From NCBI GenBank assembly GCA_018238375.1, contig JABCTJ010000008.1, positions 5-64,004 of the forward strand: a stretch of 64,000 nt of DNA. The letters are read 5' to 3'. The position numbers and the translations under genes were made by a program. Numbering within the stretch: the first letter of the stretch is position 1; each line of letters starts with the position of its first letter. This DNA is from Candidatus Thorarchaeota archaeon (GTDB lineage: Archaea > Asgardarchaeota > Thorarchaeia > Thorarchaeales > Thorarchaeaceae). The notes beneath the pieces are model-generated. The model worked only from the letters and a program-made list of their open reading frames with translations, was not told where the DNA came from and ran no database searches. Shown piece by piece: positions 33,308-58,760 of this stretch.

Positions 33308-33934
33308 TTACTTACCAATTTGTATCTGAATCGCTGCCAATACCTCTTCTGCTCTCTCAATGTCGCTTTGAACCTCTGGCAGCTCTGTCTTGAGACGGTA
33401 TGTATAACCTGATCTGTTGCCATGTCTCTCTAGATGCGCTTCACCGTTATTCCACATCCGTGCGAGGTACGTTGATGCAGTACTTTTCGGCAAGTCTTCC
33501 TCAAACGTAGATTCATAGATCTCTGCCACATCCAATGATGAGAACTTTCCATGTTTGAACGAGGCATAGATTATCATCTGCATCTTCTCATAGTTGCTCA
33601 TAGATTCATAGCTAATGTTTTCGAAATTAACATCTGCCAACTCTTCAACTGTTGGGGCGAATATGCAGCCTGTACTAGTTTCTAAGAACACCTTAAACTT
33701 TCCAACCATCTCTTCGGGATTCCCTTTTACTTGGAAGCTTGATTCTTCTCCAGTCGATTCATCAGAAACTAGAATCTTGAAATCAAAAGGCGATTGGGTA
33801 AGTGAAAGAATCTTTTGAAACCGATTGAGAGCTTCATCTGGCCTGACATATTTACATTGAAAGATCTCGCGCAAACCAGGTCCTGAGCTATATGTGAACT
33901 CGTAAACGTAATTGGTTCTTTCACCTTCCGCCAT
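33308..33934 (-). CDS. Hypothetical protein with a C-terminal winged-helix-like domain
   Basis: 208 aa. ..LDVAEIYESTFEEDLPKSTASTYLARMWNNGEAHLERHGNRSGYTYRLK fits helix-turn-helix plus a wing. Confidence 0.45.
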   Translation of the reverse strand: MAEGERTNYVYEFTYSSGPGLREIFQCKYVRPDEALNRFQKILSLTQSPFDFKILVSDESTGEESSFQVKGNPEEMVGKFKVFLETSTGCIFAPTVEELADVNFENISYESMSNYEKMQMIIYASFKHGKFSSLDVAEIYESTFEEDLPKSTASTYLARMWNNGEAHLERHGNRSGYTYRLKTELPEVQSDIERAEEVLAAIQIQIGK

Positions 33935-34138
33935 GATTTCATCATTCCCCGAATAAGCGGTCTATATTATTGCTATTCACAACGAATTACACACATTCCA
34001 CAAATAAATGTGAGTATGTGAATTACCAATACCTGGATAAGCGCAAGATATTGCGCCTGTATACGTTCAAGACCCCCCTGTCACGATTTTCCTGTGATGG
34101 CATGTTCTACACTCCGTAATGAACATAATAAGGCCTAT

Positions 34139-34163
34139 CCGCCCCTTAACTGGAAAAATAAGC
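34139..34163 (-). repeat. Degenerate ORB-like half element
   Basis: The minus strand reads CTTATTTTTCCAGTTAAGGGGCGG. The half-dyad TTCCAG and the G-string are retained and the TGGAAA half is missing. Confidence 0.35.
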
Positions 34164-34244
34164 GATTATTCCATATCTTCAAGCATTCACTAGAATATGT
34201 GGCTTGTGAATAGCCTATAGGGGATAAAGAGCTCTTCTTACTCA

Positions 34245-34268
34245 GTTCCAGTGGAAACGGAGGGGTGT
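34245..34268 (+). repeat. ORB-like element (best match in the window)
   Basis: The plus strand reads GTTCCAGTGGAAACGGAGGGGTGT: dyad, AAAC, GGA and GGGGT. Confidence 0.7.
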
Positions 34269-34414
34269 GTCCATTCACAAGGATGAACGGCATTATGAAC
34301 CCCTTTTACATACAATAAAGGCTCATAGCTCCCTATTTCTCTGGACAATTCACAATTATGGCGCCATTCACAACAGAATGATGTGAATTAGTGTTAATGT
34401 GGTGAATATGATAA

Positions 34415-35425
34415 TCAAAGGCGTATTAAATAATCGTCCCAACTTTCTCCAAGCACTATCTGGCTGAACTCTTCTCCAGATCGTCTATCCATAACGGATT
34501 CAAGCCGTCCTTTGGCTTTCACGTCCATTCCCTTTGAAACCTGCTCTGTGAAACGTCCTCGGTAGCTCACAAGTTTCCTTAGATCGTCAAGCCTGTCGCA
34601 TTGAACCCCATACGCACATGGAGTGAAGATTGAATCATGATCATCTGTCACATGACACTTGACTGTTAGCGTTCCTTCATTATGAATCGTAAAATCCCCA
34701 TACTTGTACCCAATCTCATCCGGTGATTTGACCATCCGAATGAAGAACTCATACCCGCCGGAGAGTCCTTGTAAAACCTTGTTTGATTCAACCTTTCGCA
34801 AAACATCACGCCATCGAGGATTTTCACCCCATCTGAATGTTACATGCTTATCCAGTAGCTCGCCTGCATACCAACCCAAGTTCCCAATCGCATGAAACTG
34901 CTCCTTCAGAATGGAGTGTACCTTTCTTGCTGGCTTTTCGCCATAAATTACGAGGTCCACGTCAGATTCACCCGAAGCAAGCCCAACCAGTTGAGACCCT
35001 GTAAGCCCAATGGCCCCCCATTCAATTCCCGTTATGTCAACCAATGTTTGAGCCAAGTCCAAAGATGCCTGCTGCAATGAGCTTGAATGTCGTCCCATAT
35101 CTCCTAACTGGCGTAGATAATCAACTGGGTCAAGGACAAATGCAATCCTATTCAAGGGCACAGCCTGCAATTGCCGTCCACGGGCTTCATCAAACCAGAG
35201 GTATTCGCTATGCTCTCTTTGTAGATAGTCTTCACGTTCTTTCAGCGCGGTGATTTTTCTATATCGAACCCCACTTGAAGAAACACGATTTCCATTCTGG
35301 GCAGGCAAATACCTCAGGTATGCGACTACTCGATTCTTGGGATGAACGACACCTTTCACCTCAAAGATGTGATCGTCATCAGTGACAAGGAAAAACCCCT
35401 CAACAGTTTGAAGATTCAATACCAA
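34415..35425 (-). CDS. Pol-beta-superfamily nucleotidyltransferase domain protein
   Basis: 336 aa. GLTGSQLVGLASGESDVDLVIYG matches the G-S...D-x-D nucleotidyltransferase motif. The rest is unassigned. Confidence 0.55.
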   Translation of the reverse strand: MVLNLQTVEGFFLVTDDDHIFEVKGVVHPKNRVVAYLRYLPAQNGNRVSSSGVRYRKITALKEREDYLQREHSEYLWFDEARGRQLQAVPLNRIAFVLDPVDYLRQLGDMGRHSSSLQQASLDLAQTLVDITGIEWGAIGLTGSQLVGLASGESDVDLVIYGEKPARKVHSILKEQFHAIGNLGWYAGELLDKHVTFRWGENPRWRDVLRKVESNKVLQGLSGGYEFFIRMVKSPDEIGYKYGDFTIHNEGTLTVKCHVTDDHDSIFTPCAYGVQCDRLDDLRKLVSYRGRFTEQVSKGMDVKAKGRLESVMDRRSGEEFSQIVLGESWDDYLIRL

Positions 35426-40231: not shown

Positions 40232-43200
40232 CTAAATCAGCATTTCTGCAATCGCGTCGTCCATCGTCTTCATGGTTAAATTCGCTGGAACTATAGCACT
40301 ATCATCAAGATATTCAGCTGCTGTTAGGAGACAGATCACTTGAGTTGACCCACAAATCCGGCATGCCAAATCACTATGAAGATTAAGAAGTGTGTTAAGC
40401 TGTTGCTGAGTCGGAAATACAACATAGGATTTCTTACCAACGCAGAAATCGTAGTATTCATGGCCCAGAGAAACAGGCCCATTCTGCTTCCCAATCTCTC
40501 CAATTAGCAGATTGATTGCTCTTTCCTTGAGATTTCCCAGTACTGCTGAATTTACAATCCAGAGGTCTTTTTCAAAATCGGTGTATCGCTTCTTACCCCC
40601 CACACGCAATGCCACAAGTACTTCGTCAGCAAGGAGTTCTGTGAGAGCACGTTTGCCTTCCTCGACACTCATGGGAGCTGATCTCCCTTTGAGCGACTGC
40701 AATGCGGTAGTTTCGATGAATTCTAGAAGGGCATCCCACGCAACATGTCCATCCGACAGACCAACGAAATCTTCGATTAGACCAAACCAGAGGCGCATTT
40801 GGACTGCACGACTCGTAGCTGAACCGACTTCATGCACAGCTCCCCTCAAATCAATTTTTTCTGATTCGGAGAAGCTAACAACTGCACTTGGCTGCTCTTC
40901 AACTATTTCGTTTCGATGGGACCTTCCGTGGACAAGTTCATCCACCACATTGTTTATTGAGCTGGGAAATGCTGAGATTACAGTCACATCATCAAATGCC
41001 TCCGACCGGTTAATGAGTTCTCTTAGCTTAGCTGCGGCGATGCTTCCTCTCACCACTACCACCAATTTGTTGATGTTATTCCCGAGCTCACTCATACATG
41101 CTCCAATCCGTTCCAGAACCAATTCAATGGAAGATGCTTTCAGATGGTTTGGCAAGATGAGTATAGCATGATTGCCCACAATCAACTGTGCCCCATTTGA
41201 TTCTAGCTTCTGATATTCAAAGTTATGAACTGAGTTCAAACGTTGAATTATGTAGTCCATAATAACGTCCTTAACAGCTTCTAATTCTCTGCCTGGCAGT
41301 GTAAATACGAAACCTCCGGGGACAAGTGAAAGTGCTTCGCGTGCAATAGTTCCCAGAGATACAAAGTCCCGGATTATCTCAGCAATATCGTTTTCAGCAA
41401 ATTGTGAATCCAGAGTCATCAATATGCTCCTTATCTCAATTTCAGTGGCCATATCTCTGGATGCAAGAAAGGCAACCACATGGTTCGCCAGCTCACCCAA
41501 CCGATCAAACACTACACACTCGGGTTCAGTAATAGTGCGCGTTTCGTGTATGACTGCACCATTTCCAGTTTTCTCACAGTCTTGAGTAACCGTTTCTTTA
41601 ACATCTTGTCCTGAGGTTTCAGACATGGGTCCAAACAGCTTGGTTGCAATCTCGAAAGTACTAGAACTCGGAATATGAATGAGGGCTCTGCCACACTTCA
41701 GTGACTTAAGATATTCCTCTTGTTCAGCATTGAGGGCCATATACCGCGCCCCAACTGAGCTGTCGTAAGGCAGACGAAATGTAATCTTGGTTGCAGTATT
41801 GGCCAAAATATTCGAGGAGATGTTTGGCCTTGTTGACACAACAATGACTCCTTGTCCAGTGGCCCTTTGAAGCATAACCATTGACTCGCCAGTGGTGACA
41901 TCTGCTGCAGAATGCCTTGTATAGCTTTCAGGCACCAAATTACTTGCTTCTTCAAGAACCACTACGTGATGCAGTCCAGGCTTTATTCCTCGCCTCATCG
42001 CACTATCGAATATTCTCTTGGCAACAAGATTGTAGAGGATCCGGACAGCATCCATTCCTCCTACCCGTGCAACGTGGCGCATGTCGAATACCACACGCTT
42101 GTTCAACAGAGTAGAAATCTTGAGTGCTTTTGCTCCCCCCTTTAGTATGGATCCGAGGGGCTCACGTGACAATATTTCAAGACGGTTTAGAAGCGCATCC
42201 CTAGTCATGTTTCCAAAGCGATCATTACCAGTCAGTTTCGAGATAATCTGGTTGAGGGCCTGGACTGACTTTGTTTTACGTTTTAATTTCGCTAACTCCA
42301 CCACTGATTCTCGTAAGAGCTTCTCCATGGCAGGCGAAAGTTCAGATGACAGACCTCTTTCATTTATGAGCTCCCTTAGAATCGTAAACGTTGCATGTGC
42401 ATCTATCTCACCTGAATCCGTTTCAGTGTCTAACAAATCCATCACGAAGGAGGCATCTTCTCCCGGACTGAGTATGAGAATGCTGGAATCCCATCCTGCA
42501 AGGTCCGCATATTCAGATCCCTTAATATCAAATATCCACCAAGGAACGTTAGTCTTCAAGCTCAGTTCAAGCATCAATTTTTTCACAAGATTTGTCTTGC
42601 CCGTGCCAGTGGCACCAAGAACTGCAACATGTTCTCTTAGCCACTCCGGTTTAATCCCGATATCACTAATGCGTCGCCCCCCATAGATTGTCTTTCCAAT
42701 AATCAGATCATTTTCTATCAGCTCTCTCAGCGGAACTGGAAAGACTGGAGCCATGGTCACTGCAATTACAGGAAGCTGTTGTACAGGGGTGTTCACGTAA
42801 CCCACTAAGGAACTTACATGGATTTTTTGACGTTTGAGATGTCGTCTAGTGAGAAGTCTACATGCAGTTCTACCTCGAATTCTTCCTTTCTTCAGGGAGA
42901 TGTTTTCCTCCCCACCCCAAATCGAGGCGACAAGACCGTTTACACCATTCGTTACCCTTTCAAGTTCAGCAGCATCTCTTGCTTTAGCATGAACATATAC
43001 AGAGTTGTAAAACCAGCCTGAATCACCTTGTATTCTCTCATGTTGGTCTAAAAGCTTCCTCTTGGTGGCATGATCAGCCAAGGATTCCTCATTCCTCAAC
43101 TCCTTTGCGCGAATGTTTTTCCATTCTCCTTCCATTCTCCTCCTCTCTCTGCCTGCTTTTGCACTTGAGAATACACACGTAAGCGTGACAGAATATCCCT

Positions 43201-43963
43201 GTTTGATTGCAGTAGAGATGAATGTACCAACCTGTGATGCATCAATCGAAGGCGCCACTCGGGGGATTCCCGAAACAAATGTGAGTGACTGATGCATCCC
43301 GTCACCATGAGCCAATGCTGAGGGTTCTTTCAACGAGTCTATGTGATGTACTATTTCAACTGCCCCCCTCAGCTTATCTTCTCCTAGCTGATGCACTTCA
43401 ACCCCGTTTAAAGAAGCTAGAAGAATAGCTTCTGTTCGTGTGGCTTCTCGCCTCAGAATTTCTTTCATCTCAGCTAGATTCTTTCCAGATACTGTAATGA
43501 ATAACCGCAGGAATGGTTCCCCTCTCTCCACTCCCACCTCATATGCTATGGAAACTCTACTATCCAATCCTGCACGTAGTGCCAAAAGCATGGCTGTATT
43601 ATACCTAGGCTTTTTGCCCGGATCAACAACAATCGAGCTTGGCACAGAAGCAAGTTCCAGAACGCAAGTCACAATAACATGCCCATCCAGCTGAATAACA
43701 AGAAATTGCTCATCGATAAAAACCGACAATTTATCATTGCGAATTCTCTCACTGGTTAACAACCCACCTGACAGTACTGGTAGTGCACAAACAACAATCT
43801 CGACAGTCAGTTTTAGAGGCACAGGTGGCTGTTGGATAAGACCAACAAGAGGTAACAAGTACACGAATGTCATGTAGAGGCCGCAAACAATCGTTCCACC
43901 TATCCACATTGCTCTGACCAAAGCCCATGGTCCTAGATACGTGCGACTGGATACCAGTATCAC
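40232..43963 (-). CDS. Membrane-anchored HerA/VirB4/FtsK-superfamily ATPase with a large uncharacterised C-terminal extension (1243 aa)
   Basis: Three N-terminal hydrophobic helices, then Walker A HVAVLGATGTGKTNLVKKLM at about residue 450 and Walker B HHVVVLEEASNLVP. About 460 further residues have no recognised motif. Confidence 0.65.
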   Translation of the reverse strand: MILVSSRTYLGPWALVRAMWIGGTIVCGLYMTFVYLLPLVGLIQQPPVPLKLTVEIVVCALPVLSGGLLTSERIRNDKLSVFIDEQFLVIQLDGHVIVTCVLELASVPSSIVVDPGKKPRYNTAMLLALRAGLDSRVSIAYEVGVERGEPFLRLFITVSGKNLAEMKEILRREATRTEAILLASLNGVEVHQLGEDKLRGAVEIVHHIDSLKEPSALAHGDGMHQSLTFVSGIPRVAPSIDASQVGTFISTAIKQGYSVTLTCVFSSAKAGRERRRMEGEWKNIRAKELRNEESLADHATKRKLLDQHERIQGDSGWFYNSVYVHAKARDAAELERVTNGVNGLVASIWGGEENISLKKGRIRGRTACRLLTRRHLKRQKIHVSSLVGYVNTPVQQLPVIAVTMAPVFPVPLRELIENDLIIGKTIYGGRRISDIGIKPEWLREHVAVLGATGTGKTNLVKKLMLELSLKTNVPWWIFDIKGSEYADLAGWDSSILILSPGEDASFVMDLLDTETDSGEIDAHATFTILRELINERGLSSELSPAMEKLLRESVVELAKLKRKTKSVQALNQIISKLTGNDRFGNMTRDALLNRLEILSREPLGSILKGGAKALKISTLLNKRVVFDMRHVARVGGMDAVRILYNLVAKRIFDSAMRRGIKPGLHHVVVLEEASNLVPESYTRHSAADVTTGESMVMLQRATGQGVIVVSTRPNISSNILANTATKITFRLPYDSSVGARYMALNAEQEEYLKSLKCGRALIHIPSSSTFEIATKLFGPMSETSGQDVKETVTQDCEKTGNGAVIHETRTITEPECVVFDRLGELANHVVAFLASRDMATEIEIRSILMTLDSQFAENDIAEIIRDFVSLGTIAREALSLVPGGFVFTLPGRELEAVKDVIMDYIIQRLNSVHNFEYQKLESNGAQLIVGNHAILILPNHLKASSIELVLERIGACMSELGNNINKLVVVVRGSIAAAKLRELINRSEAFDDVTVISAFPSSINNVVDELVHGRSHRNEIVEEQPSAVVSFSESEKIDLRGAVHEVGSATSRAVQMRLWFGLIEDFVGLSDGHVAWDALLEFIETTALQSLKGRSAPMSVEEGKRALTELLADEVLVALRVGGKKRYTDFEKDLWIVNSAVLGNLKERAINLLIGEIGKQNGPVSLGHEYYDFCVGKKSYVVFPTQQQLNTLLNLHSDLACRICGSTQVICLLTAAEYLDDSAIVPANLTMKTMDDAIAEMLI

Positions 43964-44011
43964 TTTCTCATCTCTCTTCGTTATATTCTAGGCCGTGTGT
44001 TAGGGTGGATT

Positions 44012-44028
44012 TCATCCATTGTGGATGA
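44012..44028. promoter_or_regulatory. Perfect inverted repeat TCATCCA-TTG-TGGATGA in a divergent promoter region
   Basis: Read directly from the sequence. It is nested in a longer imperfect palindrome (GTGTT...AACAC) between the ATPase gene and the surface-protein gene. Confidence 0.5.
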
Positions 44029-44182
44029 CAACACCCAATTTCTTTAGCATAGATATACGACCAGTTCATGGTTTCAGATTTCTCCATAAGAACTCCCCTC
44101 AGTTATCCTACAATCTGGCTCACTGAGAAACAACACAGAAACGGTAGGAGGTTAATAGCCCCAGTTCACGATTCACATTAGA

Positions 44183-49904: not shown

Positions 49905-50270
49905 TTATGAGAGCATCAAATAGAATTTGTCAGCAGCAAACATTTTCTTCTTCGCTGGCGTTGGGTTGGCAATGGTAAGGACAACCCTCAAACCGCCTAT
50001 CGCTCCCACCATCTCTAAGTCACCATTCCCTCCAATCTTGAAGATATCGCCCTCTGCATAGAGCTTGCTCTTGTCCCCACTCGCAATTGGTTTGGAATCG
50101 ACAACTACCACGATGCCATCACGCACATTCATTTTGTCACAAAGTGCTTCTGGAAGTTCCAATGTCAATTTGGCTCCTTCAGCCTTGGAAGCAATTCTCA
50201 GAAGCTTCAATCTTTTTATTTCTGTGTCTTCAATTGCATCGATTGTAGCATTCCTTAACCTGATGACCAT
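49905..50270 (-). CDS. RNA polymerase subunit Rpo8 (Rpb8/RpoG-like)
   Basis: 121 aa. The C-terminal half (YAEGDIFKIGG..LEMVGAIGGLRVVLTI......DKFYLMLS) parallels the eukaryotic Rpb8 C-terminus (..YGxxYK...SFGGLLMRLxG......YLLIRR) from memory. Confidence 0.55.
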   Translation of the reverse strand: MVIRLRNATIDAIEDTEIKRLKLLRIASKAEGAKLTLELPEALCDKMNVRDGIVVVVDSKPIASGDKSKLYAEGDIFKIGGNGDLEMVGAIGGLRVVLTIANPTPAKKKMFAADKFYLMLS

Positions 50271-50391: not shown

Positions 50392-53046
50392 TTGAATCGA
50401 AACGCACTGGTAATAGTTGCAATCGCAGTGTTCATCACCTTTGGTCTGATATCGCCAGTTAGCGCCTTTTACTTCGAGTTTGATTACTTCGAAACCGATA
50501 TGCTAACATACGAGGTTGGCGAAGCTATTCACATGGTGGCTAAGATCACTGCTGATTTCGGCGAGGATGGATGGTGCTACGTTTCTTTCGCAATAGTTAC
50601 AGACTTAGGGCCAGTCTTTGATGACGACTATTTCATACCGCCATCACCTGACACTAGAATTCTTCTCTCCTCATACATAATCCAGCCTGAGCATACGTTC
50701 CCAGGCGTCAATGGGACTAGTGGCTTTGTAATTTTTAATATCGAAGCCTTCGATGGCTATTCCCAAGGAGCCAGTGAAATCATAGAGATTAACATAACTA
50801 GGGGGCCACTAACAGCATATGCGCTGGAACCACTATCTGTCCCCTATGGCACAGACAAGAGCTTCGATCTTGGGATTGTGAGCGCACATAACAGCAACAT
50901 AACTCTCTCGAATAGTCCAGTTTCCATAGATATCTATAACGCGGATAGCGAATTAGTTGTGCACTCAAATGACACGACAGACAATAACGGTGTAGTCACA
51001 GTGAACTGGAACTCATCGTTAGGACCACCTGGGGACTACAATCTCACTGTTTCGTGTAATGGCACCGATTCATTCCATCCACTTTCAGAATCTCTCACAC
51101 TCACTGTTCAACTCCCAGAATCTAGCCTGATTGTTGCTTCGTATTCTGACTCAGTACACTGTCAGTCACACGATGGGAGCCATGTTGACTTGGCTGATTT
51201 GCGTGTGAAACATCTTAATCATCTCTCAGAGCCGATAAATGATAGTATGGTTAGATGGAATACTGAATTTGCAAACGGAAATATAACTAGCCTAGGAAAC
51301 GGTACATACAGTTCCACAATTGCTTTTGCAGTAGATCCTGGTTTCTATCGGGTAAATGTAACTGCAACTAACCCCTCGTATCAAGTAGCTCCAACTTCTG
51401 TATTGATTGCCGCCATCCAACGAGATGTGATTGTCAATGTCGAGAGTGCACAGCCTGCCATATGTGGACAGTCAATTACCATTGAAATTATCGTGACAGA
51501 CCAGGCAGTCAATACTACAATCAGCGCGATTCCACTATCTGTTAGTCTTACAATCGGAAACAGCACAGAAATCATAACCCAAGGGGCGACTAATGAATCC
51601 GGTTGCTTCAGGCATTCCTTCCTGATTCCAGAAACAAGCTGGGGCATAGGAATAATCTCAGTTCAAACAAATGAAACAACTCACTACGTCCAGATGAACT
51701 ACCAGGAACCACTAATTGTTTCATTCATCCCAGAGGTAACCCATGAAATATTGTTTCCTTCCGTTCTTGGCTATGAAGCTGCACTATTACTACATCTGAC
51801 AGACCCACTGGATGCTGACGTTGGAAGCATTTCTGTCGAACTACTCAATTCTTCGGGCTATGTATTGGCAACCGGTACGAGCGATATGATTGGTCTGATT
51901 CTGCTGCAATGGCACACGACTTCAGGAACACAAGTAGGACTAGCGAACTATTCATTAGTCATTCTTGACGAGCCTTCGAAGCATGTCTGTGAAACAACAC
52001 AGCTCCTTGAATTCATGACGTACTATCCTCTTACATTCTCTTCTGTCCATACAACATGGAACGCTGTGCGTGGTCAAACTGCAACTGTCAATTTCTTGAT
52101 AGAGTCCGAATGGGCTTTCCAACAGACCATTGGGATATCTCTTCTAGATGGCGAACACCATCTCTCCACAACTGAAATCATCCTAACTGATACGATTGTG
52201 AACATCACATTTACAATGGATCACAATGTGATTCTCGGTATACATACAATTACTGTAAGCATCAATGACACAAAATGCATCGCGATAGGGCCTTTTGATT
52301 TCGAACTATTTGTCTATGGAAGCATGGATGCAGATATCGTGGTTATGGAGGCATTCTATGGAGAAACCATCACCATGAGTCTAGATGTCCATGACGACAA
52401 TGGCAGCATCCCAAATTCGATTAATGTCAGTGTTTTTGTGGATCATATTGTAGATCCGTTCTTCGTATGGATGAATCTAAGTCCGAGCCTACTTGATTCG
52501 ATTCCGCTACCTCTTTGGATTAATCCTGGAGTTCACAACATCACATTCAAAGTGAGCAGTCCGTGGCTCGAAACCACTAACAGGTTTCTAGATGTTCACA
52601 TCTGGATGCGAACGAATCTGACACTCACAATATCAGTGGACGATTGCAGACAGGGCGACCAATCGAGTGTAGAATCGCTTGGTATTCAGACTGAAGCCAT
52701 CGCAGCAGCTATCTCATCAGGCTCAATCATAAGTCCGCCCCCAATCTTGTTGAGAGATACTACACCGACGGATTCGCCAACTGCACGCAATACTTCTCCT
52801 GCCAATTGCCCCAAGTTGAGCTCCGGCACGAGCAATCGCTCCACAGTATGGGCAAACTCCCTAATCTTCTTGTCTGGGAACGGCCAAAGAGTACGCAATC
52901 TTAGAGATCTTATTGAGCTTGCAGTGGTGTCAGTGGTCATGACTTCATCAACTGACCTAGAAGTACAGCCAAATGAAACAACACCCCATTCAGCTTCTGA
53001 GGGGCCAACAACAACAACATCATCTAAGAAATCGCGATTCTCCTGA
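50392..53046 (+). CDS. Large secreted sequon-rich surface protein; the last ~120 codons overlap korA antisense and may not be genuine
   Basis: TTG start. A Sec signal (ALVIVAIAVFITFGLISPVSA-F), repeated beta-rich segments and many N-x-S/T sites. No C-terminal anchor. Confidence 0.6.
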   Translation: MNRNALVIVAIAVFITFGLISPVSAFYFEFDYFETDMLTYEVGEAIHMVAKITADFGEDGWCYVSFAIVTDLGPVFDDDYFIPPSPDTRILLSSYIIQPEHTFPGVNGTSGFVIFNIEAFDGYSQGASEIIEINITRGPLTAYALEPLSVPYGTDKSFDLGIVSAHNSNITLSNSPVSIDIYNADSELVVHSNDTTDNNGVVTVNWNSSLGPPGDYNLTVSCNGTDSFHPLSESLTLTVQLPESSLIVASYSDSVHCQSHDGSHVDLADLRVKHLNHLSEPINDSMVRWNTEFANGNITSLGNGTYSSTIAFAVDPGFYRVNVTATNPSYQVAPTSVLIAAIQRDVIVNVESAQPAICGQSITIEIIVTDQAVNTTISAIPLSVSLTIGNSTEIITQGATNESGCFRHSFLIPETSWGIGIISVQTNETTHYVQMNYQEPLIVSFIPEVTHEILFPSVLGYEAALLLHLTDPLDADVGSISVELLNSSGYVLATGTSDMIGLILLQWHTTSGTQVGLANYSLVILDEPSKHVCETTQLLEFMTYYPLTFSSVHTTWNAVRGQTATVNFLIESEWAFQQTIGISLLDGEHHLSTTEIILTDTIVNITFTMDHNVILGIHTITVSINDTKCIAIGPFDFELFVYGSMDADIVVMEAFYGETITMSLDVHDDNGSIPNSINVSVFVDHIVDPFFVWMNLSPSLLDSIPLPLWINPGVHNITFKVSSPWLETTNRFLDVHIWMRTNLTLTISVDDCRQGDQSSVESLGIQTEAIAAAISSGSIISPPPILLRDTTPTDSPTARNTSPANCPKLSSGTSNRSTVWANSLIFLSGNGQRVRNLRDLIELAVVSVVMTSSTDLEVQPNETTPHSASEGPTTTTSSKKSRFS

Positions 53047-53819
53047 ATCTTCATTGCCAATCTGCGTACAAGTTCATCATGGACTCTGGGGTCAGCAGTC
53101 TTCCTGAAGCCATGTTCATCATGAGTGGAACCAGTAACAAGTAGATTGTGACCATCTCCAAACCTCGGCATCATTGATTTGCCCTCCTCGTCTACTGCTC
53201 CATACGGCAGATCACCGACTCTTGCTAGTCTTCTATTGATGGTAACGTTTTGGTTGGGATTCACAACCACTCTCTCTCGGGAATGTGCCACTACCTCATC
53301 AGAGAGGAGTATCACAGGATGCCGGAGGTGTTCTGATAACTCGAATGCTCTTACAGTAAGCTCGTAAGTTTCTTGAGCGGAGCTTGGTGCCAAGACAATG
53401 CTCTCATGGTCCCCGTGGGTTCCCCATCTGGCCTGCATGAAGTCGCCTTGGGCTGCTTTCGTAGCTTGTCCCGTACTAGGTCCAGCACGTTGCACGTTAA
53501 CAATTACACAGGGAGTTTCAGTCATAATGGCATATCCGATGCTTTCCTGCATCAGACTGAAACCAGGTCCCGAAGTGGCAGTCATTGTGAGCTTTCCACC
53601 CCACGAACTGCCAATGACTGCTGAAATCGCTCCAATCTCGTCCTCCATCTGGAGATAAACGCCTCCCACTTCTGGCAAACGGCGCGCCATTATTTCAGCA
53701 ATCTCCGAAGCAGGAGTTATCGGATAGCCTGCAAAAAATCTGCACCCTGCGGCAATTGCAGCTTCTGCACAGGCGTGGTTTCCTTGCCAGAAATTCACAG
53801 ACTGCTCTTGGGAAGACAT
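52686..53819 (-). CDS. korA: 2-oxoacid:ferredoxin oxidoreductase alpha subunit
   Basis: 377 aa. GNHACAEAAIAAGCRFFAGYPITPASEI, TSGPGFSLMQE and VNVQRAGPSTG. Confidence 0.88.
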   Translation of the reverse strand: MSSQEQSVNFWQGNHACAEAAIAAGCRFFAGYPITPASEIAEIMARRLPEVGGVYLQMEDEIGAISAVIGSSWGGKLTMTATSGPGFSLMQESIGYAIMTETPCVIVNVQRAGPSTGQATKAAQGDFMQARWGTHGDHESIVLAPSSAQETYELTVRAFELSEHLRHPVILLSDEVVAHSRERVVVNPNQNVTINRRLARVGDLPYGAVDEEGKSMMPRFGDGHNLLVTGSTHDEHGFRKTADPRVHDELVRRLAMKIQENRDFLDDVVVVGPSEAEWGVVSFGCTSRSVDEVMTTDTTASSIRSLRLRTLWPFPDKKIREFAHTVERLLVPELNLGQLAGEVLRAVGESVGVVSLNKIGGGLMIEPDEIAAAMASV

Positions 53820-54283: not shown

Positions 54284-55477
54284 ATGCCCCGCGATTATGT
54301 TGAGGAAGAACTGGGTCGACACAGTGTATTCAAGGCAGAACAATTTCTATCCATAGACTATGTCCCTGAAGTTCTTCCACATCGAGAACTAGAACTAAGG
54401 ACTTTGGCACAGAGCTTCAAGACACTCATAACAACTCCAGGGCGCACCAGTCAGCGATTTATAATTGAAGGTCCAGTCGGGACCGGCAAGACTGCCGTTG
54501 CGAAACGTTTCACAGAACAAATGGTTCAAGCCGCTGAGAGACGCGGAATTCGTCTGCATAAGCTTCACATCAACTGCAGGATTAACAAGAGTGAGTACCT
54601 AGTATACTTACGAATGCTAAGAGAATTTAAACCGAAATTTCCCCGTCGAGGCCATTCACCCGAAGAGCTTTTGCAAATGCTAGTTGAAGTCCTAGACATG
54701 GAGGACCGGTATCTGCTCCTGATTCTAGATGAACTTGACTACTTCATCAATCAGAGGGGGGCTAACATTCTATATGACCTTACACGTCTAATGGATGATC
54801 GATTGAATGCGCCACAACGGCTTTCCATGATTGCGGTAGGACGAAACATCCCTCTAGACCGGGACACCCTCGATTCAAGTATTTTAAGCACGCTCCAGCG
54901 GAATCTTATGCGGTTTGAGAGATACAGTTCAGAAGCTCTCTATGCTATTCTGGAAGATAGAGTAAAGATTACTTTCAAGAATGACACAATAATGGACGAA
55001 ACACTGCAGGTAATTTCTGACATCGCATCAGAACATGGAGATGCCAGATACGCCATCGAACTACTGTGGCGAGCAGGAAAACAGGCTGATCGTAGCCGAG
55101 TTAGAGTCGTAATTCCCGATTATGCTCGCCAAGCAAAGGTTGACACACATCCCGAGCTCCGGAAGGAAATTTTCGCAACACTTCCCATTCACAACAAGCT
55201 AGTCCTTCTGGCTGCAGCGAGACAACTCAAGGAAGTTAGGAGTGCTTACGTGACAATGGGGGAGGTTGAAGAGATGTATAGAGCAGTCTGCGAGGAGTAT
55301 GGCGAAGAGCCACGGGCACACACTCAAGTCTGGGAATGGGTTCAAAATCTTAACGCACATGGTGTAGTAGATACAAAGCGCTCTGGAGCGGGCCAAAGAG
55401 GGCAGACCACACTCATTGGCCTTTCTGATGTGCCTGCCGAGATGTTAGAACGATTTCTTTTGGAACTGCTAGAATAA
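54284..55477 (+). CDS. cdc6: Orc1/Cdc6 replication initiator
   Basis: 397 aa. YVPEVLPHRELELRTL, IIEGPVGTGKTAVAKRF, LLILDELD, GDARYAIELL and a C-terminal winged helix. Confidence 0.9.
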   Translation: MPRDYVEEELGRHSVFKAEQFLSIDYVPEVLPHRELELRTLAQSFKTLITTPGRTSQRFIIEGPVGTGKTAVAKRFTEQMVQAAERRGIRLHKLHINCRINKSEYLVYLRMLREFKPKFPRRGHSPEELLQMLVEVLDMEDRYLLLILDELDYFINQRGANILYDLTRLMDDRLNAPQRLSMIAVGRNIPLDRDTLDSSILSTLQRNLMRFERYSSEALYAILEDRVKITFKNDTIMDETLQVISDIASEHGDARYAIELLWRAGKQADRSRVRVVIPDYARQAKVDTHPELRKEIFATLPIHNKLVLLAAARQLKEVRSAYVTMGEVEEMYRAVCEEYGEEPRAHTQVWEWVQNLNAHGVVDTKRSGAGQRGQTTLIGLSDVPAEMLERFLLELLE

Positions 55478-55798: not shown

Positions 55799-56629
55799 TT
55801 GACCTCTTACATTGGACGACTTTTCTATCTCGGGGATGAATATCATGGGTCCCAGTGGCAACCTGGTCTACGTACAGTTCAGGGCGAGCTTATCGATGCC
55901 TTAGCTGCATGGAGCGGAGAAACTCATTCCCCCTCCACAGTTCAGCTTGCTGGCAGGACTGATAGAGGAGTGCACAGCATCGGTCAGATAGTGTTAGTCC
56001 AGACGGGCAAGCGTTTCGATGTTGATGGTGTAAACAAACACTTACCAGATGACATCAGACTGTGGGCACATGCTGAAGTTCCCAAAGATTTCAAACCGCG
56101 CTACAATATACTCATGCGACATTACAGGTACTATCTTGATACCACAAAACTCAATCTTGATTTTTCCTTGATGAAACAAGCTACACAACTCTTAACGGGG
56201 TCACACAATTTTTCGTTGTTGTCAAAGCCTGATGGAAACCGTGGCACATCTGCCACAATCCTGAATATATGCCTAAAAGCATCAAACGGGACCCTCTCGA
56301 TTGATGTCTTTGGCATTAGTTTTCTCTGGAAACTTGTTCGAAAAATGGTTTCTCTATTGACCCGGATTGGGAATGGCGAACTTCAGCTGAACGCAGTGCG
56401 CAAGCTCTTGGAACAAACCAACGTACTTCCCGGGGGAATCAACCCCTCTCCTCCAGAGAGTCTTGTTCTGTTGGATGTAATAGTGCCGATTCGTATGAAT
56501 GTGAGTAAATACGGTAGACGAAGAATGCAAAAGGAACTCGCAAGACGACTTGGCTATCTTCACAGATCTACTATGATTCTTTCCGCTCTTACCGAGCACT
56601 TCGACTCCGGTCGAAGGCACCACTCTTGA
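55799..56629 (+). CDS. truA: tRNA pseudouridine synthase A
   Basis: It has YLGDEYHGSQWQPG and GRTDRGVHSIGQIV (catalytic Asp). The ORF opens at 55682, but homology starts near the in-frame TTG at 55799, so the start is uncertain. Confidence 0.8.
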   Translation: MTSYIGRLFYLGDEYHGSQWQPGLRTVQGELIDALAAWSGETHSPSTVQLAGRTDRGVHSIGQIVLVQTGKRFDVDGVNKHLPDDIRLWAHAEVPKDFKPRYNILMRHYRYYLDTTKLNLDFSLMKQATQLLTGSHNFSLLSKPDGNRGTSATILNICLKASNGTLSIDVFGISFLWKLVRKMVSLLTRIGNGELQLNAVRKLLEQTNVLPGGINPSPPESLVLLDVIVPIRMNVSKYGRRRMQKELARRLGYLHRSTMILSALTEHFDSGRRHHS

Positions 56630-57809
56630 TTTCCAGCCAGCGAGCAAAGACTCCTTTCAGATTCGGTTCTCGCTCAATTATTTTCTCAATCGTATCCTGA
56701 TGAGTGCGAGCGCCTCTTCTAACTGAAACCCCCGTAAATTCCGTAAGTTTCGTGAGAATTTGCTTCTTTTTCTCCTGCTTTCTGTTTCCTTGCCAGACCA
56801 ACAATGGCCAATTGGGTTCAGTATAATCAACATGTCGAAATGGAGATTCTTGTCGACTTGTCGCTACTCCTGCAGAGAGGAAGTCATAGACATAAGAGAG
56901 CAGTTTCCAGTTCTGCTTTCGCATTATTCGTCCCAGAGTGAGGTCTCCAAGAGATAGCGCCTCAAATCCCAAGTCCAATTCCTTTGTACTCCTAAGATGG
57001 AGATGCACATTCTGCTCAAGCCACAGCAGTAGGCTCTCATGATCGACATCAGCTTCAGACACAACTCTCCGTGCTGCAACTGAGTCAGTAGTCATGAAGA
57101 GTCGACTAAGTGTTTCCTTCACATTGCGCTTGATGTCCCGCGAGGGAAGTTCTCCCTCTAGAGGATATCCTCCTCTCAGAATAGCTTCCAAGTCTGAAAT
57201 CGCAGCACGAAGGTCTCCGGCAGAGCGATCTGCTATCTCCTCTAGAATCTTATCTTTCACAAGTGCATCTTGACTATCAGCTATCCCCTTCAACACACCC
57301 ATAACATCACTGGGTTCTAGAGGTTCAAAGACCAAAACAAGAGAGTTTTTTCTAAGGTCTTTCAAACGGGGACTACTAGGATTATTCGCTGTCATCACAA
57401 TTGGATGTACAGACTCTGCAATCACATTCAGTATTGCGCCAACTCCTCCTCGATCACTTGTTCCCGAAAGCCCATCCACTTCGTCGAGCATAATTATCCT
57501 CAGACGTCCATCTAGAGTCTGCTGCGTGGCAGCTATCCAAACAGTTGTTCCTATACTCCCCTTGTTGCGCTTATCACTTGCATTGAATTCAACTAGTTCC
57601 ATGTCTAGGTCGTGGCTCAATGCACCAATGGATGCTGTCTTTCCTACTCCCGGCGGACCGATAAGGAGTATTGCCTTTTTTTTAGGAATTCCTCTCCTCC
57701 AAGATGATATCCACTCCCTCAGCGTGCGAATTGTATCTGTATTCCCCACAAGCTGCTCCAAGCTTTTTGGCCTGTATCTCTCTGGCCATGGAAGGCTTTC
57801 TCTGCTCAC
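56589..57809 (-). CDS. rfcL: Replication factor C large subunit
   Basis: 406 aa. PWPERYRPKSLEQLVGN, LLIGPPGVGKTA and IMLDEVDG. Confidence 0.88.
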   Translation of the reverse strand: MSRESLPWPERYRPKSLEQLVGNTDTIRTLREWISSWRRGIPKKKAILLIGPPGVGKTASIGALSHDLDMELVEFNASDKRNKGSIGTTVWIAATQQTLDGRLRIIMLDEVDGLSGTSDRGGVGAILNVIAESVHPIVMTANNPSSPRLKDLRKNSLVLVFEPLEPSDVMGVLKGIADSQDALVKDKILEEIADRSAGDLRAAISDLEAILRGGYPLEGELPSRDIKRNVKETLSRLFMTTDSVAARRVVSEADVDHESLLLWLEQNVHLHLRSTKELDLGFEALSLGDLTLGRIMRKQNWKLLSYVYDFLSAGVATSRQESPFRHVDYTEPNWPLLVWQGNRKQEKKKQILTKLTEFTGVSVRRGARTHQDTIEKIIEREPNLKGVFARWLEIKSGAFDRSRSAR

Positions 57810-57815
57810 GTTCTG

Positions 57816-58760
57816 TCACAGCCCCATAAAGGCAAGTAATGCAGCCAGCTGAACTTCTCCATCTGCTCCCTCTGATATTCTAAACTCTACCTCTGCAGTC
57901 CTTTCTAGCACATTCATTTTTCTTTGCTCAGGGAGTTCGGACGACAGTACCTCTCGGTGAATTTGTCGAACCAAATCTACGGATGAAACGCCCTGATGAT
58001 ACGTCAGGTCCTTCAAGATATCAAGAGCCTCGTGATACCTTTTCTCCTGGGACGCACTCAGCATACTCCTAATTCTCTTAGGATCAGCTCGTCCAGAAAT
58101 TGCGTAGATAACATCGTCGGTGACTTTCTCACCTGTAGATGCTGATGCCTGTAACAAGTTGATTGCAGCTCTCATATCACCCTTGGAAAGATAGAGGATC
58201 GCATCAATTCCCTTAGTGCCCAGCTTGACTCCTTCTGCCTTTGCAATGTATTTCAGTCTCCCTAATATCGCTTCATCGCTAAGTCGAGCGAACTTGAAGA
58301 TAACACATCTTGATTGAATCGGCGGAATTATCCGGCTTGAGTAGTTGCATAATAGAATCATTCTACAGGACGCCGCATATGACTCCATGGTTCGTCTCAG
58401 AGCGTGTTGGGCATCTCCAGTCAGATGATCGGCCTCATCTAAGGCAAGAATCCTGAATGGGGCATCACCAGATGGCATCGCCCTTGCGAAGTTCTTAATC
58501 TGATTTCTCACGACATCGATGCCCCTTTCGTCACTCGCATTCAGTTCCATAAAGTTACGATCAAAGGAATCGCCAAAGAGGTCTCTTGCCATTGCCATGA
58601 CTGCAGTTGTCTTACTGGTCCCAGGAGGACCTGCGAATAGACAGTGAGGTACTGCTTTTGCCTTAACGAATCTGATTAACCTATCGACCACAGGCTCTTG
58701 CCCGATGATATCATTCAGTGTCTGAGGGCGATATTTTTCAGTCCATAGATCGACATCCAT
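57816..58760 (-). CDS. rfcS: Replication factor C small subunit
   Basis: 314 aa. LWTEKYRPQTLNDIIGQ, FAGPPGTSKTT, LDEADHLT and SRC motif (QSRCVIF). No intein. Confidence 0.92.
   Translation of the reverse strand: MDVDLWTEKYRPQTLNDIIGQEPVVDRLIRFVKAKAVPHCLFAGPPGTSKTTAVMAMARDLFGDSFDRNFMELNASDERGIDVVRNQIKNFARAMPSGDAPFRILALDEADHLTGDAQHALRRTMESYAASCRMILLCNYSSRIIPPIQSRCVIFKFARLSDEAILGRLKYIAKAEGVKLGTKGIDAILYLSKGDMRAAINLLQASASTGEKVTDDVIYAISGRADPKRIRSMLSASQEKRYHEALDILKDLTYHQGVSSVDLVRQIHREVLSSELPEQRKMNVLERTAEVEFRISEGADGEVQLAALLAFMGL

Follow-up and report, generated by a model that had tools for sequence, protein, structure and literature searches.

The locus and the gene

The window analysed here is a stretch of 64 kb from a Candidatus Thorarchaeota archaeon (GenBank assembly GCA_018238375.1, contig JABCTJ010000008.1, positions 5 to 64,004) and is the sole stretch of the source genome inspected; the loci of relatives were viewed to ~10 kb on each side. 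It holds a minus-strand open reading frame (ORF) with a GTG start (40232-43963), which encodes a membrane-anchored ATPase of 1243 residues. The original prediction, made by a model from the sequence letters, had given the same reading frame and length and quoted two motifs, both of which are present. It also placed the gene beside surface-protein and pilus genes, as is borne out by an immunoglobulin-like (Ig-like) surface protein, a pilus-type filament ATPase of the T2SSE family and an Flp-like pilin candidate (Table 1). Judged in part from predicted structures, the protein is equipped with the components of a membrane motor of the VirB4/CedB/CedD type, and it is probably a motor of the type IV secretion system (T4SS) kind.

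The gene is real and conserved across Thorarchaeota (Asgard archaea). A homology search gave 226 matches; the best 120 of them are 1157-1292 residues long, cover 93-100% of the query and, where named, belong to Thorarchaeota, Promethearchaeota or Sifarchaeia. Conservation spans the whole length of the protein, tail included. Full-length homologues (39-99% identity) occur in many independent assemblies, including the closed chromosome CP070658.1, with all seven segments in register. When 1.8 billion cluster representatives were scanned with HMMER, the complete seven-segment architecture was found only in nine 50%-identity clusters (39-55% identity) and in fragments; named members of the nine clusters are Thorarchaeota, except one labelled Lokiarchaeota. 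A scan with one genome per GTDB species located the gene at 79 loci, nearly all titled Candidatus Thorarchaeota, with one copy in CP070658.1. The original prediction had reserved the possibility of a fusion artefact. A joining of two or three genes by mis-assembly or frameshift is refuted by the co-linear full-length homologues (1171-1292 residues) in many independent assemblies and in a closed chromosome, every segment being conserved, and its probability is negligible. Two metagenome-assembled genomes contain two copies of the gene each, at 94% and 52% identity to the window in HM6_B34 (L014 versus L035) and at 88% and 55% in E44_bin77 (L056 versus L084). Copies of such different identity, one of them on a short contig, point to bins in which two Thorarchaeota populations are combined, not to true paralogues.

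The window is archaeal core chromosome, with TFIIB-type genes and genes for ribosomal protein S10, GlmS, Cdc6/Orc1 and both RFC subunits. No relative of the ATPase was found on viral contigs, and plasmids gave only matches of 23-28% identity to the ATPase core of generic DUF87 proteins; an origin in a mobile element is rejected on these grounds. The gene is vertically inherited with the core chromosome and does not belong to a mobile element. The genes for Cdc6/Orc1 and both RFC subunits (54284-55477, plus strand; 56589-58760, minus strand) are 10-15 kb away, and distant relatives of the ATPase are also found near cdc6 and S10 (L007, L092); there may be a replication origin nearby. On its other side, a minus-strand pair (33308-35425) is conserved in nearly all Thorarchaeota loci and encodes, side by side, a 336-residue protein with a weakly matched nucleotidyltransferase domain and a 208-residue one without a family.

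Table 1. Segments of the ATPase and features of the neighbouring genes in the window
Feature	Position	Strand	Description and basis
Transmembrane hairpin, residues 1-76	43736..43963	-	Short cytoplasmic N-terminus and two transmembrane helices; hydropathy, AlphaFold2 model, local profile
N-domain, residues 77-415	42719..43735	-	Alpha/beta, VirB4/TrwK N-domain fold; AlphaFold2 and Foldseek
HerA-clade P-loop ATPase, residues 416-778	41630..42718	-	FtsK-HerA superfamily; Pfam, NCBIfam, PADLOC
C-terminal module 1, residues 812-1012	40928..41530	-	Winged helix ~814-888 and alpha/beta domain ~893-1012; AlphaFold2
C-terminal module 2, residues 1038-1243	40235..40852	-	Winged helix ~1048-1138 and alpha/beta domain ~1139-1242; AlphaFold2
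Promoter-like element GGGGAGTTCTTATG	44085..44098	-	Putative G-rich BRE and TATA-like box, 122-135 nt upstream of the ATPase start
Ig-like surface protein, 683 residues	44183..46234	+	N-terminal signal/anchor, C-terminal transmembrane helix, basic tail; Pfam Big_3_5 and bMG3
Flp-like pilin candidate, 68 residues	46486..46692	-	Leader ending G-G, then PLVEES, hydrophobic helix, amphipathic helix
Type-IV-filament assembly ATPase, 569 residues	46781..48490	-	T2SSE family, archaeal GspE/CpaF/FlaI-like, Cys-rich N-terminus; Pfam T2SSE E=2e-21
Divergent TFIIB/TFB paralogue, 352 residues	48644..49702	-	Zinc ribbon and cyclin-like repeat; Pfam TFIIB 23 bits, NCBIfam TFIIB 56 bits against a cut-off of 384

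Membrane anchor, N-domain and ATPase core

The protein starts with two transmembrane (TM) helices, not with the three of the original prediction. Hydropathy peaks strongly at ~19-43 and 48-70; the supposed third helix (87-113) gives a weaker peak and contains D, H and E. In the model of residues 1-440 (predicted local distance difference test score, pLDDT, 79; predicted template modelling score, pTM, 0.74), helices 12-40 and 51-76 are followed by beta strands at 79-106. All structures discussed here are AlphaFold2 predictions from alignments of moderate diversity. A local hidden Markov model of residues 1-76 matches all full-length family members. With two TM helices both ends of the protein are cytoplasmic, which fits a cytoplasmic ATPase. 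Purely by analogy with VirB3-VirB4 fusions, the hairpin presumably occupies the place of VirB3.

The domain of about 400 residues announced after the membrane helices is present and can be narrowed to ~340 residues with a VirB4-like fold. Residues 77-415 match no sequence family in Pfam or NCBIfam. With the predicted structure as query, the top 14 Foldseek matches in the PDB are all TrwK/VirB4 of R388 (7o42, 7o41, 8rtb, 8rtd), with E=1.6e-8 to 1.6e-7, probability 1.0 and 376-425 aligned columns. The next matches are unrelated FAD-oxidase folds, four orders of magnitude weaker, and no HerA structure is among the PDB matches. On the predicted structure, a VirB4-type N-terminal domain thus precedes the ATPase. 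The TM hairpin, the VirB4-type N-domain fold and the DUF87 match described below support the earlier assignment of a membrane-anchored ATPase of the HerA/VirB4 superfamily.

The announced P-loop NTPase with HerA/FtsK/VirB4-style motifs is found at residues 416-778, where residues 422-601 match Pfam DUF87, the HerA central domain, at 58.6 bits (cut-off 23.2; E=1.3e-15). Walker A (GATGTGKT, 450-457) and Walker B (VVVLEEA, 667-673) follow the patterns G-A-T-G-[TS]-G-K-T and h-h-h-L-E-E-A, which are invariant in 131 full-length members, as are R700, R712 and neighbouring polar residues; the ATPase is presumably active. This match above cut-off and the invariant motifs place the domain in the FtsK-HerA superfamily. 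Besides DUF87, Pfam gives weak matches to TrwB, FtsK and HerA_C, that to FtsK_SpoIIIE covering only residues 439-469 and remaining under the family cut-off (17.3 bits versus 24); AAA_10/CagE-type families are not matched in Pfam. NCBIfam models align over ~417-766, and CedD is the best named one (44.3 bits versus a cut-off of 600), followed by HerA_Thermprot (29.9 versus 800) and by CedB (23.9 versus 700); the CedD and CedB models align with the ATPase core alone. The HerA models as a group score 17-30 bits against cut-offs of 800-850, and the VirB4 models TIGR00929 and VirB4_plasma 14.6 versus 643 and 14 versus 590. By sequence the protein thus belongs to none of the CedB, CedD, HerA and VirB4 families, and the original prediction was right to recognise no family for the fusion, since every named model remains far under its cut-off. 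The PADLOC mad8 (58 bits) and HerA models likewise match the ATPase core only.

A C-terminal tail of two modules

The ~460 residues from ~780 to 1243 were described at the outset as an unassigned C-terminal half, and so they remain, with no family match in Pfam, NCBIfam or PDB sequences (noise only in the last). Profile searches with each module against PDB sequences and Pfam also returned only noise. In the model of residues 790-1243 (pLDDT 78.6), a disordered linker at ~1014-1050 separates two tandem modules, each made of a winged helix and then an alpha-beta-beta-beta-alpha-beta(-alpha-beta) domain; in module 1 the order is alpha-beta-beta-beta-alpha-beta-alpha-beta. The winged-helix-like stretches noticed earlier thus reappear as two winged-helix units. 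A Foldseek search of the tail against PDB and BFVD gave nothing below E=1e-3. The weak matches form a winged-helix group (MarR, PadR, Fur, RTP, Nse1/3/4, Pol III C82, cullin WHB) and a restriction-endonuclease-fold group (FokI, XPF-ERCC1, EcoO109I, Can2, YaeQ and a phage PD-(D/E)XK protein; E at least 0.02). The secondary-structure order of the alpha/beta domains fits the restriction-endonuclease-like alpha-beta-beta-beta-alpha-beta core, but the Foldseek matches to FokI, XPF-ERCC1, EcoO109I, YaeQ and the phage protein are weak (E=0.03-0.2). The models weakly suggest a tail built of winged-helix and restriction-endonuclease-like folds, a point in favour of DNA as cargo.

The two modules differ in their conserved residues. 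In module 1, R972-G-S974 and R981 are invariant across 131 members, and a D..(E/D)(D/E)(K/R) motif is present in ~80% of members, the clade of the window having Q..G-N-H. In module 2, which is confined to the full-length family, H1168, D1172, C1174, C1201, C1204, C1211 and E1217 are kept in 124-131 of the 131 members, a pattern pointing to a likely Cys/His metal site. For biochemical work, this conserved Cys/His/Asp/Glu site of the tail offers an obvious point of entry. Among the 131 members, neither a conserved Lys nor a D...(D/E)xK motif is seen in the last domain, and the catalytic residues of PD-(D/E)xK nucleases are conserved in neither module. The tentative proposal of a PD-(D/E)xK core in the terminal segment thus keeps its weak hints at the level of the fold and loses its motif: an endonuclease is possible as a fold, and canonical PD-(D/E)xK catalysis is unsupported.

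Two further ideas about the tail were discarded. A tandem duplication of the modules is suggested only by the repeated order of secondary structure, and hhalign gives it a probability of 1%. A candidate stand-alone module-1 protein (P0264) is on a 1.3-kb contig, on which the matter is undecidable.

The Ig-like partner gene and a promoter-like element

The Ig-like protein has TM helices at 33-51 and 655-673 and 17 N-x-S/T sequons (25 per 1000 residues). Its gene, divergent in the window, is directly upstream of the ATPase gene in 73/73 loci with at least 2.5 kb of upstream DNA. The pairing survives inversions that move other genes (L037, L072, L073), and it is kept in the 25%-identity relatives P0140 and P0270 (loci L008, L088, L091). 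In two reorganised loci (L007, L075) the Ig-like gene adjoins the ATPase gene but is co-directional. The ATPase gene is invariably paired with the gene of a sequon-rich Ig-like surface protein. In one Thorarchaeota lineage an IS605-family OrfB/TnpB gene (Cas12f-like; L005/L006, 8536-9808) is inserted between the two and splits an otherwise constant intergenic region.

This intergenic region holds the element GGGGAGTTCTTATG (also written GGGGWGTTCWTATG), which is unique in the window. It is oriented and strongly conserved, with the consensus GGGG(A/T)GTTC(A/T)TAT(G/T). The exact GTTCWTATG core is found in fixed orientation in 55/71 non-redundant loci, and a position weight matrix scores above 12 bits in 61/71; upstream of 11 other gene families no match was found. 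Divergent loci keep ...TTCATATT or ...TTTTTATT, the terminal G being lost, and its form in the AT-rich L091 lineage is GTGGAGTTTTTATTT. Because of this lost G and the L091 form, it is read as a G-rich TFIIB recognition element (BRE) with a TATA box and not as a start codon, so that GGGGAGTTCTTATG appears to be promoter-like. An ORF of 37 codons (43974-44087, minus strand) runs from the ATG in the element to 7 nt before the ATPase start; neither this ATG nor the peptide is conserved in other clades, and it is probably not a gene.

The pilus-type block and the TFB paralogue

Beyond the Ig-like gene, a second block has the order TFB paralogue, T2SSE ATPase, 68-residue protein. Of the 58 loci that extend over 20 kb or more, every one has the TFB and T2SSE genes and 56 have the 68-residue gene. 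In the 68-residue protein, the stretch ...GGPLVEESLLLG... (G-G-P-L-V-E-E-S-L-L-L-G) and the hydrophobic helix are near-invariant across 66 distinct sequences, and its G-G-PLVEES motif resembles the Flp prepilin motif G|xxxxE. The top Pfam match of the L091 orthologue is Flp_Fap (E=9e-4, below cut-off), and the L094 homologue matches Flp1_like (E=0.047); from its sequence the protein looks like an Flp-type prepilin. For the T2SSE protein the best NCBIfam model is of the TadA family (103 bits), before TrbB (78), FlaI (74) and VirB11 (72), all below their cut-offs. Against PDB sequences it matches GspE of A. fulgidus (2oap, E=9e-28), CpaF (4e-18) and FlaI (4e-14) and not VirB11, so that an identity as VirB11 is rejected. 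The TFB paralogue is more conserved than its neighbours, with ~73% identity where the ATPase has 55%. By analogy with TFB3 of Sulfolobales, it could serve the gene set as a dedicated initiation factor.

Two neighbouring genes complete the picture. Searches of Pfam, NCBIfam and PDB found no match for a conserved 121-residue protein (49905-50270, minus strand). Its gene shares synteny with the TFB paralogue at most loci; in L007 and L075 it has the T2SSE gene on one side and the Ig-like gene on the other. An ORF of 884 codons (50392-53046, plus strand) encodes a secreted Ig/MG2-like protein rich in sequons (30 N-x-S/T per 1000 residues) and shares its final 360 nt with the pyruvate:ferredoxin oxidoreductase gene, which runs on the other strand (52686-53819, minus). 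Since homologues have 550-640 residues, the 3' end of this ORF may be over-extended.

Distant relatives and rearranged loci

The whole region is syntenic within Thorarchaeota, housekeeping genes included. Because housekeeping neighbours are as syntenic as the putative partners, synteny proves little and the informative cases are rearrangements and outgroups. The lineages of the outgroup loci are assigned from a single marker protein. The short relatives P0140 and P0270 (937-940 residues) consist of N-domain, ATPase and a single diverged module-1-like unit at the end. Their lineage is rare, with a ribosomal protein S2 that reaches no more than 76% identity to any other protein and has its best named matches mostly in Thorarchaeota. 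On a 325-kb contig of this kind (L091), the flanks differ entirely (OTCase, GHMP kinase, QRPTase, DHOase), yet orthologues of all five genes are present. The TFB paralogue (45% identity) overlaps the start of the T2SSE gene, the T2SSE ATPase (31%) and a 69-residue pilin-like gene (38%) belong to the same block, and ~7 kb from it an Ig-like gene (22%, E=4e-21) stands divergent from a short-form ATPase gene (26%).

A longer relative, P0149 (1393 residues, four or five N-terminal TM helices, ~30% identity), is encoded at an Asgard-type locus with Roadblock and Arf-family genes (L094). There an orthologue of the TFB paralogue (40% identity, E=2e-80) stands 75 nt upstream of P0149 in the same direction, and a gene like that of the 68-residue protein is 2 kb away. 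The relatives P0153 and P0141 are directly preceded by proteins of 79-83 residues with two hydrophobic helices joined by a basic loop; for one of them the top Pfam match is the TrbC/VirB2 pilin (E=0.008, below cut-off). With these small genes (L092 7680-7919; L089 1340-1591) ahead of the ATPase relatives, the gene order resembles virB2-virB3-virB4. The contexts of P0141, P0145 and P0174 are otherwise too short or uninformative.

Collectively, across three Asgard lineages with different flanks, the ATPase gene is linked to a TFB paralogue and an Flp-like pilin, and in two of them also to a type-IV-filament ATPase. These shuffled arrangements suggest that the ATPase, the Ig-like protein, the Flp-like pilin, the filament ATPase and the TFB paralogue are probably one functional set, and that the wider ATPase family is probably of T4SS ancestry.

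Proposed role and alternatives

The gene set may mark an undescribed cell-surface transport system. It is tempting to propose, by analogy and with the caution due to a tentative assignment, that the ATPase is the motor of a chromosomally fixed, T4SS-derived surface apparatus of Thorarchaeota with DNA as cargo, in exchange or uptake as in Ups/Ced/TFB3. DNA is ranked first because the closest characterised relatives import DNA and because the set of pilus, VirB4-like ATPase and TFB paralogue mirrors Ups/Ced/TFB3. The ATPase would form a hexamer at the inner face of the membrane, like VirB4, CedB, CedD and TedB, and would use ATP to move a macromolecule through the envelope or to assemble a filament there. 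The Ig-like protein would be the external part for contact or adhesion, the pilus module would bring cells or substrate into contact and the TFB paralogue would switch the gene set on, while the acidic C-terminal modules, with their putative Cys/His metal site, would dock or process cargo or partner proteins. The more specific picture of a domesticated, vertically inherited, T4SS-derived machine for DNA exchange, present in Thorarchaeota and a few deep Asgard relatives and built unlike Ced/Ted, is doubtful. Just as speculative is its division of labour, in which a single VirB3/VirB4-like motor would act with tandem winged-helix/nuclease-fold tail modules, bearing a Cys/His metal centre, that recognise or process DNA, an Ig-like glycoprotein for contact, an Flp-type pilus and a TFB switch.

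Several observations weigh against a DNA-moving apparatus of this kind. The scores against the named families (CedD, HerA, CedB, VirB4) are one to two orders of magnitude under the curated cut-offs. In the 64-kb window there is no gene for a VirB6/CedA-like polytopic channel, a VirD4-like coupling protein, a relaxase, a prepilin peptidase or a TadB/C/FlaJ platform. The linkage to the pilus module rests mainly on the two outgroup loci L091 and L094 and a few rearranged loci. The promoter-like element is restricted to the Ig-like/ATPase intergenic region; the pilus and TFB genes lack it, so that no motif of a common regulon was found. As for the tail, it has no conserved nuclease catalytic motif; the D..EDK-like motif of module 1 is missing in the clade of the window and alternates between K and R at its last position elsewhere. 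Finally, all four subdomains of the tail are acidic (family median pI 4.6-5.5), which argues against general, non-specific DNA binding.

The same T4SS-type motor could instead handle protein, extracting the Flp-like pilin and/or helping to export, anchor or assemble the Ig-like glycoprotein. It would then be the membrane partner of a platform-less T2SSE ATPase, and its acidic winged-helix modules would be scaffolds for docking proteins. This is rather unlikely, and protein is ranked second as cargo because the partner is always a glycoprotein gene, no platform gene is present in the window and the tail is acidic. The surface protein gene is the most tightly linked of all. The T2SSE ATPase and the Flp-like pilin stand in the window without a TadB/C or FlaJ-like platform gene, although platform and peptidase genes could sit elsewhere in the genome. 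The modules are acidic and free of nuclease motifs, and many of the top Foldseek matches of the tail (Nse1/3/4, Pol III C82, cullin WHB) are protein-binding tandem winged-helix subunits. VirB4 is needed for pilus biogenesis in T4SSs, which also counts for protein. However, the Ig-like protein has a signal sequence of its own and so probably takes the Sec route, and the characterised archaeal chromosomal relatives, CedB and CedD, act in DNA import (PMC11868833).

Two other explanations keep DNA as the substrate and dispense with a surface apparatus. An FtsK/SpoIIIE-like housekeeping pump for division, with winged helices reading polar motifs like FtsK gamma, would share the layout of TM anchor, motor and C-terminal winged helix. 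Throughout the class the gene seems to be a single-copy core gene; it lies ~10 kb from cdc6/orc1 and RFC, and the 17-bit FtsK_SpoIIIE match points the same way. That match is below cut-off, however, the ATPase is closer to the HerA and CedD models, and FtsK lacks a VirB4-like N-domain. The constant partner gene encodes an extracellular glycoprotein, and it is pilus genes that recur nearby; the tail is acidic, and the family is limited to one class and a few deep lineages instead of being general in Asgard archaea; such a pump is improbable. Still less credible is a fusion of HerA with a nuclease for DNA end processing or anti-virus defence, in which the motor would feed a C-terminal PD-(D/E)xK nuclease. 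The PADLOC mad8 (58 bits) and HerA matches of the ATPase core, the weak resemblance of the tail to FokI, XPF-ERCC1, EcoO109I, Can2, YaeQ and the phage PD-(D/E)XK protein, and the conserved H, D, E and Cys of the last domain are in keeping with it. Against it stand the lack of a conserved Lys and of a canonical D...(D/E)xK motif, fold matches with E at least 0.02 throughout, and a membrane anchor, VirB4-type N-domain and core-genome synteny that are atypical of defence islands. The analogy with soluble HerA-nuclease pairs in repair and defence, raised in the original prediction, finds no support in the neighbourhood either: it contains no NurA, Mre11, Rad50, Sir2 or other defence partner, and PADLOC gave no defence match among nine neighbours beyond a P-loop match.

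If the ATPase is indeed the motor of a DNA-exchange machine, DNA exchange would be a regulated chromosomal function in the archaeal lineage closest to eukaryotes. The gene set offers a concrete, testable candidate, comprising motor, external glycoprotein, pilin, pilus ATPase, putatively dedicated TFB paralogue and conserved promoter-like element. Even with protein as cargo, the novelty would be twofold: a whole archaeal class would have a VirB4-type motor as a fixed core gene, and that motor would be fused to ~460 class-conserved residues without detectable relatives.

Comparison with known systems

From its sequence and predicted parts, the ATPase would work like VirB4, CedB or CedD, yet it fails to join any of these families by sequence, and their usual partners are not in the window. 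Conjugation-derived chromosomal machines for DNA exchange are known in archaea, to our knowledge, only from Sulfolobales (Ced) and Thermoproteales (Ted). Full-text searches of the literature found no paper describing an Asgard VirB4/Ced-like system, this tail, the Ig-like partner or the class-wide inheritance.

HerA of HerA-NurA pairs and defence HerA (Sir2-HerA) resemble the protein in the ATPase core, which matches DUF87 and the PADLOC HerA models. They differ in that the protein described here is membrane-anchored, has a VirB4-like N-domain and lacks a partner gene for a nuclease or effector. FtsK, with its gamma domain, and TraB of Streptomyces combine a membrane anchor, a hexameric pumping ATPase and C-terminal winged-helix unit(s). 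The logic of this layout and the ATPase superfamily are, on the model, common to the present protein. In contrast with FtsK, the N-domain is VirB4-like and the family match is below cut-off. Each winged helix is acidic and has an alpha/beta domain beside it, and at the sequence level no relation to the gamma domain was detected.

Likeness to VirB4/TrwK lies in the predicted N-domain fold (E=1.6e-8) and the common ATPase superfamily, to which we would add the TM hairpin ahead of the VirB4-like part, presumably as in bacterial VirB3-VirB4 fusions. The differences are the score against TIGR00929 (~15 bits versus 643), the absence of other T4SS genes from the 64-kb window, the vertical inheritance of a core chromosomal gene and the large orphan tail of its product.

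The closest counterparts are CedB and CedD of Sulfolobales and TedB of Thermoproteales, which are archaeal, chromosomal and located off conjugative elements, and in which a TM segment, a VirB4-like N-domain and a HerA-clade ATPase are combined as in the present protein. For CedB and CedD, ATPases of the HerA clade, a TM segment is described together with an N-domain that superposes on parts of its VirB4 counterpart, and both are chromosomal ATPases acting in DNA import (PMC11868833). In Sulfolobales, the TFB paralogue TFB3, the Ups type IV pili and the Ced VirB4-like ATPases act together in DNA exchange (PMC6101591, PMC11868833, PMC9905601). Ced and Ted stand, in their hosts, alongside type IV pili and a TFB paralogue. 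The differences are several. The scores against the CedB and CedD models are 24-44 bits against cut-offs of 600-700, and each of these proteins matches a part of the VirB4 N-domain of which a single protein covers most here. The ~460 extra C-terminal residues have no counterpart in CedB or CedD. Ced import is induced by DNA damage and depends on CedB/CedD together with CedA/CedA1. The window has no CedA/VirB6-like or CedA1/VirB2-like gene, the invariant partner being an Ig-like glycoprotein, and the host is an Asgard archaeon. The comparison with Ced/Ted made from the sequence alone was nevertheless apt: CedD is the best-scoring named model for this ATPase, and the predicted fold of its N-domain is that of VirB4.

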